6,933 bases of DNA, taken from the IMG/VR virus record IMGVR_UViG_2548876700_000016; one strand, given 5' to 3'. A program made the position numbers and the translations under genes. Positions 2,377 through 5,947 of the stretch are shown here, in pieces. This DNA comes from a virus (taxonomy: Duplodnaviria > Heunggongvirae > Uroviricota > Caudoviricetes). Each line of letters opens with the position of its first letter. The stretch's first letter is position 1. The notes below the pieces were generated by a model, which ran no database searches, was not told where the DNA came from, and worked only from the letters and a program-made list of their open reading frames with translations.

Positions 2377-3087
2377 TCAGCGAATCTCCAACACTGACGA
2401 TGAAGTGATCAGGCTGGCGAACGCATCCATACGGCGGGCAACCTCACGCACCGCATCGCCTGGACTCATGTCATTACGCACCGCCTCATTAAAGGCCGCC
2501 TGTTCGATTTTCTGCATCACTACCAACAGCCCCAATTGCTGTTCGTCTGCGGTACCGCGTTCACCATCAGACAAACCAGCCACGCGGTTTTCAGCGCGGG
2601 CCAGATTGATGTAATGGTGCCGTTGTGCGCCCAGAGCTTTTAATCTGTCGCGGCTTTCGTGATAGCCAGGCAGGTACTCACGGCGGATAGGTTCTGCGGC
2701 GCGGCGCTTAGTGAATGCCTTCGTAACATCCAGTTTGAACTGGTTAATACGCTCAGGATCACGCCCTCGGGTGATACGCAGCAGATAGTCGAGCTGCGGC
2801 TCATTCAGCAGATAACTAATCTCAGGACGCCCACGCTTTCGGCCGGATTTTCCCGATTTCAAATCGGTTAATTCCTTGAGTGACTGACGAGGCAGTGATC
2901 CCAGCTCGCGCAATCTGCTCTGGTGCGATTTAATCGTCGCGCTTAGGCTTTCATGTTGTATTCCGGCTCGCTCTGAAATAACGCGGGAATCGATACGCGG
3001 CTCCGATTTGTGATTAATTAAAATATCGCTCTGGCTGGCTTCAGGGTGAGCGAATCCCTGCCCGTTGAGGGCATTAATCTTTTTCAT
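2377..3087 (-). CDS. Rha-family phage regulatory protein (236 aa)
   Basis: N-terminal region IDSRVISERAGIQHESLSATIKSHQSRLRELG matches the Rha-domain signature D-S-R-x-I-x-E-x-x-G-x-x-H-x-x-L-x-x-x-I as I recall it. Starts 20 nt after the alpA-like stop, so probably co-transcribed. C-terminal region not recognised. Confidence 0.6.
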   Translation of the reverse strand: MKKINALNGQGFAHPEASQSDILINHKSEPRIDSRVISERAGIQHESLSATIKSHQSRLRELGSLPRQSLKELTDLKSGKSGRKRGRPEISYLLNEPQLDYLLRITRGRDPERINQFKLDVTKAFTKRRAAEPIRREYLPGYHESRDRLKALGAQRHHYINLARAENRVAGLSDGERGTADEQQLGLLVVMQKIEQAAFNEAVRNDMSPGDAVREVARRMDAFASLITSSSVLEIR

Positions 3088-3107: not shown

Positions 3108-3392
3108 TTAAGCAGATTTGCGGCTGTATGGGTTATTGACGTTCTCTACTACAGGCGGATTACGAACCCACCAGAGCACATCAGAAAGAAGCCAGGCACA
3201 GCTATTGCGGCCGAAGTGGCAGCGTGGCGGAAATCGTCCTTGCTGCTCCATTTTCCAACGGCTGGAACGGGAAAGGCTGGTGATCTCGCTACATTCTTCT
3301 TCACGGATTCGACGATCGAACTTAAAGCCGTACTCTTCTAAAAGGGTGCGGCGCTGTTCAGGATTAGGCGGGGTAAAAATGGGGTTTTGCAT
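3108..3392 (-). CDS. alpA: AlpA-family (Xis/MerR-like HTH) prophage transcriptional regulator (94 aa from the internal Met; the track ORF extends to 3434)
   Basis: EITSLSRSSRWKMEQQGRFPPRCHFGRNSCAWLLSDVLWWV follows the AlpA pattern (T-G/S-L-S-R-S-T-I-Y...G-x-F-P-x-P...W...E-V/I-x-x-W). GGAGG lies 4 nt upstream of the ATG at 3392-3390; the first Met of the track ORF (3434) has no SD. Confidence 0.75.
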   Translation of the reverse strand: MQNPIFTPPNPEQRRTLLEEYGFKFDRRIREEECSEITSLSRSSRWKMEQQGRFPPRCHFGRNSCAWLLSDVLWWVRNPPVVENVNNPYSRKSA

Positions 3393-3472
3393 GTTGCCTC
3401 CACTGTTTCTAAGTTTGTGGAGGCTAGTTTGCAACCGTTAACACTGGATAGAAATACAGTTGTAAGCATAGA

Positions 3473-3509
3473 AGCATACTGATAATGCTTATAAATATAT
3501 CAGTATGCT
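3473..3509. promoter_or_regulatory. Perfect 12-bp inverted repeat between the orphan gene and alpA; candidate operator or terminator
   Basis: AGCATACTGATA (3473-3484) and TATCAGTATGCT (3498-3509), separated by a 13-nt AT-rich spacer. Lies 22-58 nt downstream of the 309-aa gene's stop and about 80 nt upstream of the alpA start. Confidence 0.45.
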
Positions 3510-3530
3510 ATAGGAGTATATGAGTAAGGC

Positions 3531-4460
3531 TTACTGTGTTCTTTCGCTCGGCCTCTTATGCGCATTGTTTAATATTGCTGCTATTTTCGTTTCTGTTTTT
3601 ATTGGCAATTCACCATTGATGAACCAGTCAGGTCTGGCGATCAACTCACGGGCCCAGGCAGAATAGTTAATAGTTCCATCTGTTTTTCTGCAACTCTCAT
3701 TAAAAGCATTTTGCTGCTCTTCTTTGAAGCGCATGGCTACCATTAAAATTTGCTCTCGATTTCTTGCATGTCTTTCAGCAGAATGATGAACAATTTCATT
3801 GCCATTCATCTTATGAGGTTCTACAAATTCAATATCATCTGTCAGCGTGAAATAATCGCCACCACAGTCAAGGAGCCGCCTTATATCCTGAGCAGTAATC
3901 CACAAATCGTTTATAGAGATTTTATTTTTGAATACTTGATCGTCTTCTTCATCATAATCGCTATCTTCGCCAACCATTAAAAGCTGTACGGCGGGATTAT
4001 CAGTTTCTGGATGGCACGGGGTTAATTCAAAACCACTTAGGGCATACTCTCCAAAATTTTGTAGCTCTTCTAATCCGCTCCAAAGACGCCACAACCCATA
4101 AGCCTTACCAATAGAACTGAAACACCCATTTTCTGTATCTTGACCAAATAAAGGCACGTGAATCGTTTCTTCCGTTTCCTCATTGTAATCGCATCTGTAG
4201 AGATGAAGCCTGGAAAATTCAGTAATATTGTTTCCCATCATGGATGTGGTGGAGTTTGCCTTTCTGGTATCGAACCAGTCGCATGCAGATTTGCTGTCAG
4301 TTCTCATATATAAAACAGCGCGAGCATCAAACAAATTTAGACATAAAGATATTTTTTTAGTAACACCTAAATTAATCAGGTCGCTAATCTCACAACCCAG
4401 CAATCTCGACGCACGTTCAATATTGCAGTATTGAAAAGGTATTTTAATGTCGTTAGCCAT
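3531..4460 (-). CDS. Hypothetical protein (309 aa), AT-rich orphan cargo gene of unknown function
   Basis: ORF-track ORF with GAGGG SD 7 nt upstream of ATG at 4460-4458. Visibly more AT-rich than the flanking int and alpA/rha genes. N-terminal stretch IERASRLLGCEISDLINLG looks HTH-like; central acidic stretch EDSDYDEEDD. No P-loop, nuclease or other catalytic motif recognised by eye. Confidence 0.7.
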   Translation of the reverse strand: MANDIKIPFQYCNIERASRLLGCEISDLINLGVTKKISLCLNLFDARAVLYMRTDSKSACDWFDTRKANSTTSMMGNNITEFSRLHLYRCDYNEETEETIHVPLFGQDTENGCFSSIGKAYGLWRLWSGLEELQNFGEYALSGFELTPCHPETDNPAVQLLMVGEDSDYDEEDDQVFKNKISINDLWITAQDIRRLLDCGGDYFTLTDDIEFVEPHKMNGNEIVHHSAERHARNREQILMVAMRFKEEQQNAFNESCRKTDGTINYSAWARELIARPDWFINGELPIKTETKIAAILNNAHKRPSERTQ

Positions 4461-4497
4461 TGCGCTGCCCTCAACGCCCCTAAATTAATTTGCGAGC

Positions 4498-4522
4498 CAA
4501 GCGGGTAGGGTTTCCCGCTTTT
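4498..4522. other. Short hairpin in the int/orphan intergenic region, weak terminator candidate
   Basis: AAGCGGG (4499-4505) / CCCGCTT (4514-4520) with an 8-nt loop. The plus-strand tail is TTTTCGG; the minus-strand tail has no T-run. Confidence 0.25.
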
Positions 4523-4553
4523 CGGTTGGCCGACCTAGGCCCGCAATATCAGT

Positions 4554-5780
4554 TTAATCTCTATTCATTACAGGTAACAGAACCACATTTTGATGATTAC
4601 CCGCAAGAAGTTCTAATCGTTCATACCACTTATTCAGCGCGTCCAGCTTCTCAGGCAAGTACAGACTACGGTTATAAATCGCCATAACTCCCGGCATTGA
4701 GTGCCCCAACAACTGTTCGACAACGTGTGGTGCTATACCCATATTATTCATATGCGTTGCTAAAGTTCGTCTTAGATCGTGCAGTGTCCATGGTTCAGAA
4801 TGCCCCAGCTTTTTATAAACGCTACGGCCCCACTGGCTTACCGCTTCACTGCCTTTAACCGACCCAAGCAAAAGACCGGATAGTTTCGTTTCATCATGCA
4901 GTATTTCAATGAATTTGCGCATGGCATCCGGCACAGGTCTTACAATCTTCTCGCCGCCCTTGCTGTGCTCTTTGGGAACTGTCCAGACCCAGGCATCCAT
5001 ATCCCATTCACTCCACTCTGATAGTCTGGCCTCCTGCGTTCGGCACCCAAACACCATTAAGATTGTCAGTAGCCTGGTGTAGTAAGGCATGAAGCAAGTG
5101 CTAGAGGTAATGGCAGTCCATAAATCGCCAGCCTCTTTATCGTTTAATACCCGATCTTTTTTTGCCTGTTTTTTACCGACATCTGGAATTGTTAAATCTT
5201 CAAGCGCGGTACTCACAGCATAGCGACGAACCCGGCAGAATTTCAGGGCTTGTTTGCACATCTGGAACACATAACCTGCGGCGACTGGCGTTTTCTTTTT
5301 CATCCTGTCAAAGCAGTCAAGCCAGTATCGGGTTTCGCAGTCAGCGAGCGCCATTTTTCCAATGTAAGGGTAAATATGTTTGCGTAGCTCCGCTTTATGC
5401 CGCTCAACATTCGCGCGATTCTCTTCTGCATATTCACGTATCCAGTATTCGATAGCTTCCTGCACCGTGACCGGTTTAAGCGTTTCCTGAGTAGTTAGCG
5501 CCAACTGGTGCTTTGGGTCTTTACCTGAGGCCAGCCACTGGCGGCATTTATCACGCGAGGAACGGGCCTCTTTGAGGCTCATATCCGGGTATCGTCCCAG
5601 AGTAAGACGATGCAACTTCTGCCCGTCGAGTCGGTAAGTAAACACCCAGCTAATACCACCAGCTTTCGTTACCTTGGCACTCAGCCCGGCACCATCAGCA
5701 TAGAACTCAATCTTACTGGCCGGGATGCCATGTAATCCCTTTAACTTCCTGTCGCTCAGTTTGTTAAGTTCGCCAGCCAT
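4554..5780 (-). CDS. int: Tyrosine recombinase/integrase, P4-type with an N-terminal arm-binding domain (408 aa from Met at 5780; the track ORF extends to 5864)
   Basis: C-terminal catalytic signature HDLRRT ... LLGHS ... AIYNRS (R, H-x-x-R, H, Y). N-terminal pattern L-x-D-x-K...DG-x-GL...W...YR...G-K...LG-x-YP-x-x-SL-x-x-AR typical of P4/CP4-type integrases. The Mets at 5864 and 5840 lack an SD; the Met at 5780 has a weak GGTGG. Confidence 0.85.
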   Translation of the reverse strand: MAGELNKLSDRKLKGLHGIPASKIEFYADGAGLSAKVTKAGGISWVFTYRLDGQKLHRLTLGRYPDMSLKEARSSRDKCRQWLASGKDPKHQLALTTQETLKPVTVQEAIEYWIREYAEENRANVERHKAELRKHIYPYIGKMALADCETRYWLDCFDRMKKKTPVAAGYVFQMCKQALKFCRVRRYAVSTALEDLTIPDVGKKQAKKDRVLNDKEAGDLWTAITSSTCFMPYYTRLLTILMVFGCRTQEARLSEWSEWDMDAWVWTVPKEHSKGGEKIVRPVPDAMRKFIEILHDETKLSGLLLGSVKGSEAVSQWGRSVYKKLGHSEPWTLHDLRRTLATHMNNMGIAPHVVEQLLGHSMPGVMAIYNRSLYLPEKLDALNKWYERLELLAGNHQNVVLLPVMNRD

Positions 5781-5819: not shown

Positions 5820-5947
5820 GAATTGCTTGCATAATAGCATAAACAAAGAAAAACACTGGAACAATATACAGGCATAAATTTAAATAAGCCATTGATTATT
5901 ATATAAATACTAAAATCACCTAAAAGCATGAAAACAGCTAATCTGAC

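Follow-up and report, generated by a model that had tools for sequence, protein, structure and literature searches.

In the islands EcCICFT073 and EcCIMP1, induction of alpA is reported to depend on a helper phage and to be independent of the SOS response, and AlpA positively autoregulates (PMC6092414; PMC11773190). Over-expression of AlpA leads to uncontrolled replication of the island and is harmful to the host (PMC6092414), so a gene that lies upstream of alpA and is read in the same direction has to be insulated from it. Gram-negative PICIs have been described as being without a master repressor of the kind found in Gram-positive PICIs, such as Stl or Rpr. On the question of how alpA is silenced and switched in Gram-negative phage-inducible islands, published work reports induction that depends on a helper phage and not on the SOS response, and no repressor.

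Here we analyze a window of 6,933 nucleotides, the whole stretch of DNA under study, which holds a PICI-like satellite island of Enterobacter/E. coli. The same gene layout has been reported for classical Gram-negative PICIs, including those of Enterobacter (PMC6092414; PMC13612085). Our focus is the spacer between an orphan gene and alpA, which contains a perfect inverted repeat and which probably carries the sequences that control alpA in one family of islands.

The island and its genes

On the minus strand, the order is int, the int-alpA RNA motif, the 309-aa orphan gene, a 138-nt spacer, and alpA (Table 1). The GC content is about 0.38-0.42 for the orphan gene versus about 0.52 for alpA. 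The best protein match bears the name Enterobacter hormaechei. Of 5426 complete E. coli genomes, 32 carry nearly identical or related islands, which lie beside yhdJ or gcd and have Icd-like, DUF4222, and primase genes downstream. E. coli FDAARGOS_1283 and ATCC 43886 are examples of strains with the island.

Table 1. Features of the 6,933-nt window, with the sequences of the spacer elements.
Feature	Positions	Strand	Details
yhdJ	5983 onward	+	chromosomal flank
Tyrosine integrase (int)	4554-5780	minus	
int-alpA RNA motif, Rfam RF02996	4477-4545	minus	61 bits; between int and orphan gene
Orphan gene, 309 aa	3531-4460	minus	phrog_7144; no Pfam or PADLOC match
Stop-codon palindrome, AGTAAGGCTTACT / gene strand AGTAAGCCTTACT	3523-3535		overlaps orphan-gene stop; conserved columns in alignment
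Second palindrome arm, + strand TATCAGTATGCT	3498-3509	minus	5' arm of minus-strand hairpin
Spacer/loop, + strand ATGCTTATAAATA, gene strand TATTTATAAGCAT	3485-3497	minus	13 nt, A/T 11/13
Palindrome arm, + strand AGCATACTGATA	3473-3484	minus	3' arm of hairpin on transcribed minus strand
LexA/SOS-box-like site, gene strand AACTGTATTTCTATCCAGTG	3442-3461	minus	CTG-N10-CAG
Putative -35, gene strand TTTCTA	3449-3454	minus	inside LexA-like box; 17-nt spacer to -10
Putative -10, gene strand CAAACT	3426-3431	minus	tentative assignment
Shine-Dalgarno (SD) palindrome, GCCTCCAC-N13-GTGGAGGC	3396-3424	minus	downstream arm holds alpA Shine-Dalgarno
alpA, 94 aa	3108-3392	minus	Phage_AlpA PF05930; phrog_2790
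Rha-like gene	2377-3087	minus	
C4-type RNA module (antisense RNA, targets, isrK-like)	1078-1165, 1233-1282, 1191-1269	minus	Rfam; adjoins Icd-like gene

The RF02996 motif is multi-stem and is followed by a U/A-rich run and AGGGG right before the orphan-gene ATG; it is also found in L001-L004 and L020-L022. The elements at 1078-1282 are a P1/P4-type RNA immunity module of the island. They comprise a C4 antisense RNA (RF01695, 73 bits), its a1/b1 target element (RF03163), and, below threshold, an isrK-like match, all on the minus strand. Further along, a 14-bp inverted repeat, TGTACGTACGTAAC-N16-GTTACGTACGTACA (1613-1656), overlaps a near-consensus minus-strand promoter, TTGACA-17-TATTAT (11/12 matches, 1634-1662), and lies directly next to the start of a + strand gene for a 63-aa Arc/RHH-like protein (1656-1847), an arrangement suggestive of an operator among divergent promoters. 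A 354-aa minus-strand open reading frame (1313-2377) overlaps this opposite-strand RHH gene. At that place the 98.5%-identical E. coli island L001 has only short minus-strand genes (at the 3' end) and an opposite-strand HicB-like gene annotated, and the 354-aa frame is probably spurious. We likewise discount as a gene a 48-aa + strand frame with AGGAG upstream (3520-3666), which is cut to 13 codons in L002.

A perfect inverted repeat between the orphan gene and alpA

The original prediction made from this DNA described a perfect 12-bp inverted repeat with a 13-nt AT-rich spacer between the orphan gene and alpA, and both the sequence and an exhaustive scan agree with that description. The scan finds two perfect inverted repeats of at least 12 bp with a spacer of at most 30 nt in the window, namely this one (3473-3509) and the 14-bp repeat at 1613-1656, and the symmetries of the two are distinct, as had also been claimed. 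The orphan reading frame ends at 3531-3533 and the alpA ATG lies at 3392-3390, which confirms the placement of the repeat between them. On the minus strand the predicted hairpin starts 21 nt after the orphan-gene TAA (3533-3531), and its arms are complementary at 12 of 12 positions. When the window is shuffled 2000 times with its dinucleotides preserved, only 0.9% of the shuffles hold any perfect 12-bp repeat with a spacer of 3-30 nt, and such a repeat arises in 0.025% of 20000 shuffles when the 138-nt intergenic stretch is shuffled alone. The 12-bp repeat is real and non-random.

The repeat is present in 12 of the 5426 E. coli genomes, each time at one place, and is single-copy in the island, and searches of phage and plasmid collections for it returned no significant matches. 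A repeated mobile element (REP, MITE, or IS end) was rejected on the basis of its single place per genome. No Rfam family matches 3435-3530 at E <=1, and the covariance model of the int-alpA RNA (RF02996) matches 4477-4545 only, so the repeat is not a copy of that RNA. Nor is the repeat itself a LexA box, since CATACTGATA-N13-TATCAGTATG does not match the CTG-N10-CAG consensus. Likenesses to a Fur box (14/19 by eye) and to the IHF consensus (WATCAR-N4-TTR) were set aside for poor spacing or matches. A third near half-site of the repeat, CCTACTGATA, at 1602-1611 in the window was attributed to chance, being missing in L001.

We also scanned viral contigs with a loose pattern of 14 specified bases and a strict pattern of 20 bases. 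The loose scan gave chance matches alone, and the strict scan returned the same islands and one unrelated contig, L182, which is within chance expectation. In this A/T-rich viral contig, CATACTGATA-N11-TATCAGTATG lies at 850-880, where it directly follows the stop codon of an integrase gene and precedes a gene of the XRE-type HTH kind, a position that resembles that of the window repeat.

Conservation of the repeat among related loci

Relatives of the orphan protein fall into 20 clusters from Enterobacter, Photorhabdus, Xenorhabdus, and Arsenophonus, and about 45 related loci drawn from genome, metagenome, and viral collections were compared; the 90% cluster of the 309-aa gene has 143 member sequences. 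The homologues sit between int and alpA in every locus found, and the order int, homologue, 137-153-nt spacer, and alpA is seen in every locus long enough to show both neighbors. The original prediction named absence or degeneration of the repeat in close relatives with this gene order as part of what would refute it, and the comparison shows this in part: the repeat is intact only at 90% or greater orphan-protein identity, degenerate at 86%, and gone at 66% or below.

Within this range the repeat is unchanged in loci with 95-99% orphan-protein identity. It is also unchanged in L015, which encodes a mosaic protein whose last 84 residues are 100% identical and whose remainder is 43-71% identical, with the junction near residue 225. 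Loci of the L002/L029 type (90-95% identity) keep a 10-bp core, and one change in them turns a G-C pair of the sense RNA into G.U. The only substitution seen in the arms of about 20 close loci is a C to U on the sense strand; the pair survives there as G.U, where the opposite strand would have A.C. The loop is invariant in the loci with an intact repeat except L042, which has one change, and its TTATAAGCAT part is kept even in L013. In L013 (86% cargo identity), the arms are AGCATATTTATA and TATACATATGTA; two of the arm changes are double and preserve the pair (C-G to U-A and G-C to U-A), and the others break one pair, turn another into a wobble, and break a terminal pair.

Other clades have other palindromes in the same interval. 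In L016 this is AAGGTTACA-N29-TGTAACCTT, of which L017 has a 13-bp version; in L019, L020, and their relatives it is ATACAAAGG-N20/21-CCTTTGTAT; and in the Xenorhabdus locus L021 it is GGGYTGT-N8-ACARCCC, followed by CCTTTCT. Every clade retains some palindrome there, and family-wide pairing at the repeat amounts to 59.6% of cells versus 32-44% in slid controls. RNAalifold, applied across the family, gives essentially no consensus helix at the repeat. Given the loss of the repeat at 66% identity or below, the different palindromes found instead, and the lack of a family-wide helix, the repeat is specific to one clade.

The sole family-wide helix that RNAalifold reports pairs columns 17-27 with 48-58 (window about 3488-3498 with 3518-3528), that is, the stop-codon-side box with the TATAAG region of the repeat loop. 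It has five compensatory pairs and negligible energy, and it would compete with or cross the repeat hairpin. The stop-codon palindrome at 3523-3535 belongs to a set of GTAAGC..TAC boxes, of which all relatives have copies in their spacers.

The clade-restricted distribution raises the possibility that the repeat has no dedicated function. It would then be a perfect palindrome of one lineage that arose when template switching corrected a quasi-palindrome in an A/T-rich spacer, where several palindromic boxes of the GTAAGC/CTTAC type were already present, and that was kept through recent divergence alone. Template switching is an established mutational mechanism that also yields "compensatory" changes without selection. 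Such an origin fits the confinement of the intact repeat to loci with at least 90% cargo identity, and it fits the alignment with other clades, in which the left arm aligns with the conserved box TA-AGC..TAC and the right arm with non-complementary sequence. The repeat is 93-97% identical to that of L002, which is barely above the 88-93% of the adjoining coding sequence. However, a 12/12 repeat is rare by chance, some palindrome is kept by all clades, and a non-coding stretch that is at least as conserved as the neighboring gene suggests constraint. We regard an origin without function as unlikely. Across the 66 nt of spacer beside the cargo stop codon, the window and L002 have 2 differences.

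Identity to L002 is 88-97% in the orphan gene and on to about 3460, and 62-93% in the alpA segment. Mosaic junctions are found on both sides of the repeat, at about 3427 (L004-L007), at about 3460 (L002), and within the cargo gene (L015).

A predicted hairpin at the end of the orphan gene

The explanation that we favor, and hold tentatively, is that the repeat is a hairpin at the 3' end of the orphan-gene transcript, or a leaky insulator before an apparently SOS-controlled alpA promoter. The repeat sits between the stop codon of a co-directional gene and the alpA promoter elements described below. In vivo, the minus-strand transcript would fold into a stem-loop of 12 bp with a 13-nt loop and a calculated energy of about -15.6 kcal/mol (z = -3.9 against shuffles; z = -5.5 for the whole spacer). 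This stem-loop may mark the 3' end of the orphan-gene transcription unit, acting as a weak or leaky terminator, as an end-protecting hairpin, or as both, and it would help shield the alpA promoter immediately downstream from transcription out of int and the orphan gene.

An intrinsic terminator insulating alpA was among the options that the original prediction had listed, and it survives with respect to position and stability but not with respect to the stem, the loop, or the U-tail. Like a terminator, the repeat follows a stop codon at a short distance and on the strand that is transcribed. However, only 4 of its 12 pairs are G-C, its loop is 13 nt rather than 3-8 nt, and its crude hairpin score is -5.4. 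By an approximate scoring, with attenuators as controls, the U-tract of the window tail, UCUAUGCUU, scores 1.8 compared to 4.7-5.1 for the control terminators. A consensus terminator scan of 3300-3700 found no terminator-like site. We therefore reject a canonical intrinsic terminator, given the AU-rich stem, the 13-nt loop, and the weak U-tail. In L002-type loci, if the stem is read as 10 bp, its tail is UUUCUAUGAUU, which scores 3.2, and a complementary AAG stands upstream of the stem, a terminator-like arrangement. More distant relatives in which the gene order is unchanged have unrelated hairpins in this interval, and some of these hairpins (L021, L008, L022) are GC-rich and run into CUUUCU.

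The double pair-preserving changes in L013 and the substitution in close loci that keeps a G.U pair count in favor of a hairpin. Against a purely structural hairpin, conservation in the loop and in the 21 nt of upstream flank equals that of the stem. Folding energies of the sense and antisense strands do not differ consistently, and L013 no longer has the hairpin as its minimum-energy fold (z = -0.8). The limited pairing across the family, the missing consensus helix, and the lack of terminator-like hairpins in other cassette types also weigh against a hairpin.

A LexA-like box and a putative alpA promoter

Read on the gene strand, the 138-nt spacer contains, in order, the stop-codon palindrome, the repeat, a conserved CTTACAA block, a LexA-like box, CAAACT, the SD palindrome, and the ATG at 3392. 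The original prediction, drawn for 3435-3530, was correct in that the repeat lies inside this region, but it overlooked the LexA-like box, which is also inside the region and would mark the alpA promoter.

The E. coli consensus for a LexA box is TACTG(TA)5CAGTA, and the site in the spacer matches it at 15 of 20 positions. Our weight matrix, built from 20 E. coli SOS boxes, gives approximate scores; the training boxes range from 16.5 to 28.3. With this matrix the site scores 19 bits and is the top match in the window, and the maximum over 300 shuffles is 18.8. A LexA-like site is found at the same place in about 40 related loci, where it scores 18-23 bits, even at about 40% cargo identity, and perfect boxes are found at this place in L016 (TACTGTATTCCCATACAGTA) and L013 (CTGTATTTCTATACAG). 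Matches of at least 18 bits outside the spacer are rare, amounting to one site in L037, which is repeated in L051, and a match in L039 that is unplaced. Islands with other int-alpA cassettes have no convincing LexA box upstream of alpA.

In relatives, the hexamer at the putative -10 position is TAAACT, TACAAT, or TAGAAT. Its positions 2 and 6 are invariant (A104 and T108) in a 13-sequence spacer alignment and position 4 is nearly so (A106), which is the pattern expected of a -10 element. The LexA-like box, this -10-like hexamer, and a -35 inside the box together point to an alpA promoter that LexA could repress, with its start predicted near 3418. The box suggests direct SOS control of alpA in this island family, in contrast to EcCICFT073 and EcCIMP1. 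Under the hairpin explanation, the promoter that is shielded from upstream transcription would be the one controlled by LexA.

The SD palindrome is kept across cassette types, with 73.5% of cells paired and compensatory changes at two pairs, and the putative -10 abuts its anti-SD arm at 3417-3424. It may provide a second safeguard, as the predicted alpA start (about 3418) would fall inside the anti-Shine-Dalgarno arm: transcripts born at the alpA promoter would have a free ribosome-binding site, while in read-through transcripts the site would be paired. The SD palindrome could in this way keep read-through transcripts untranslated. Alternatively, it could be a shared AlpA auto-activation site.

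A second, weaker LexA-like site, GCCTGTATATTGTTCCAGTG (5854-5873, 12.4 bits), precedes the int ATG (5780) by about 75 nt. It repeats part of the alpA-side box in direct orientation, and several loci have it ahead of int as well. Inside the repeat, a scan of either strand for a sigma-70 promoter finds none; the best + strand promoter candidate found by eye, TTGTAA-15-GATAAT, was rejected for its short spacer.

Other cassettes between int and alpA

The interval between int and alpA holds other genes in other islands: a 272-aa protein in L004, DUF6387 in L005, and a 216-aa protein in L006 and L007, for which L006 has a faint AlpA-like match at the C-terminus. These four loci share the window sequence only to about 3427, a homology break that is about 47 bp from the repeat, and they do not have the repeat. 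Upstream of alpA they have motifs of their own, namely the palindrome AATTTTCCGGAAAATT and ATTTTCC repeats in L004 (about 3630-3690), three copies of TTTTTCTAT in L005 (about 3640-3760), and four copies of ATTCCAT in L006/L007 (L006 about 3640-3740). We found no gene-strand terminator-like hairpins in these other cassette types. By this comparison, the DNA upstream of alpA is seen to swap together with the int-proximal gene.

These loci bear on a cassette boundary, which the original prediction had offered as another option and which an alignment of related elements was to reveal through different cargo genes beside a conserved repeat. The alignment contradicts it: the cargo differs in L004-L007 and the repeat is not conserved there. 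A recombination scar or attC-like recognition site at the edge of a cargo cassette would be in keeping with the variability of the int-alpA slot, which holds at least four unrelated cargo types, and with the shift in base composition near the repeat. However, the repeat is set about 47 bp into the variable segment and is absent from other cassette types, no matching repeat is found at the int-proximal edge, and mosaic junctions fall on either side of it. A single copy per genome and the absence from phage and plasmid collections argue in the same direction, and we find the scar explanation scarcely credible.

The same loci speak to the idea that the repeat is an AlpA auto-activation site of the alpA promoter. 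The repeat is upstream of that promoter and AlpA autoregulation is known in characterized PICIs, as would be expected under this idea. However, L004-L006 encode AlpA proteins that are 94-97% identical, with an identical DNA-binding (helix-turn-helix) region, and yet they have no repeat and share only 3393-3426. This makes an AlpA site very unlikely. On these sequence comparisons, we consider an AlpA site and a cassette scar to be effectively excluded.

The 309-aa protein as a candidate partner of the repeat

The original prediction had also proposed an operator for alpA control. The repeat-less islands remove AlpA as the binder, and the 309-aa protein, which always co-occurs with the repeat, takes its place as the candidate. 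The repeat would then be a dyad-symmetric operator for a dimeric DNA-binding protein, most likely the 309-aa protein acting through a putative N-terminal winged helix. Relative to the predicted start near 3418, the repeat spans about -55 to -91 with its center near -73, and binding about 73 bp upstream of the start could tune (activate or repress) the alpA promoter or the protein's own 3' region. The int-alpA cassette would thereby be a swappable regulator-plus-operator module. With the alpA start taken as predicted, a site near -73 would suit the geometry of a class I activator.

Several lines of evidence favor an operator. The dyad is perfect, beyond chance, and its loop and flanks are conserved together with its arms. 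Among the proteins that the island encodes, the 309-aa protein alone always co-occurs with the repeat, and the repeat never occurs with other cassettes; L002 and L003 have different Rha-like and RHH genes or none, int varies, and islands without the repeat share AlpA. In addition, each of the other cassette types carries its own repeated motif upstream of alpA. Against these stand the repeat's degeneration at 86% protein identity and its loss at 66%, without clear co-variation with the putative recognition helix. The putative operator is single-copy both in the island and in each genome, and its arm centers are 25 bp apart, a non-integral number of helical turns. An unbiased 6-mer test of a motif array in the spacer gives the observed maximum in 24% of shuffles; we accordingly dropped a five-copy AAGCATA(C) array, and the GTAAGC..TAC boxes stay a family-level observation.

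An AF2 model of the 309-aa protein is confident, with a pLDDT of 82, and an N-terminal beta-alpha-alpha-beta unit weakly resembles the winged helices of MerR, Xis, and AlpA. Foldseek searches of the model against PDB and BFVD gave no significant full-length match, Pfam searches of the isolated N- and C-terminal domains gave nothing meaningful, and no Pfam HTH was detected even at E = 10. The weakness of these structural matches also weighs against an operator for this protein. The C-terminal 84 residues are the most conserved, with 74% identity even where the rest is 15-35% identical. Considering both sides, we see an operator for the 309-aa protein as somewhat less likely than the hairpin and as its main rival.

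A broader version of this idea is that the int-alpA slot is a swappable induction-control module, in which a DNA-binding protein, its own operator DNA, and a LexA box decide when AlpA fires. In this island family a Xis/MerR-like N-terminal domain of the 309-aa protein, as suggested by the model, could be paired with the 12-bp dyad and the GTAAGC..TAC boxes. We consider such a module a long shot.

Discussion

We return to the hairpin explanation, under which the palindrome is probably an ordinary insulating hairpin. The LexA-like box beside the repeat is more informative than the repeat, and the by-products of this analysis may be worth more than the palindrome itself: a conserved LexA-like box, a layout that would sequester the Shine-Dalgarno sequence, and regulatory DNA that swaps with the upstream gene. 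All three lead to concrete, testable hypotheses for the trigger of induction and for the neutralization of read-through from the int-proximal gene. If the swappable-module reading were true, the cassette would be a functional counterpart of Stl, which is thought to be missing in Gram-negative PICIs, and this island family would be wired directly to the SOS response.

Among known systems, intrinsic terminators and 3'-end hairpins resemble the repeat in being a stable stem-loop on the transcribed strand, tens of nucleotides past a stop codon and before the next promoter, and the L002-type relatives additionally share their U-rich tail and complementary A-rich 5' flank. The repeat in the window differs from them in its AU-rich stem, its long loop, and its lack of a real U-tract. 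The int-alpA RNA, RF02996, is similar in being a structured element found between int and alpA in islands of this kind. It differs in sequence and in having multiple stems, and its place is on the upstream side of the orphan gene, about 1 kb away from the repeat. The neighboring box resembles known LexA boxes, both in its CTG-N10-CAG form and in a score within their range.

The Stl/Rpr operators of Gram-positive PICIs resemble the repeat in being a perfect dyad beside the promoter of a master regulator, a comparison of function and not of sequence. A variable gene between int and the regulatory module occupies the place that stl has in SaPIs (PMC6092414). Unlike in the Stl/Rpr systems, however, the orphan gene is co-directional rather than divergent, it has no recognized repressor domain, and the putative site is located upstream of the promoter rather than over it.
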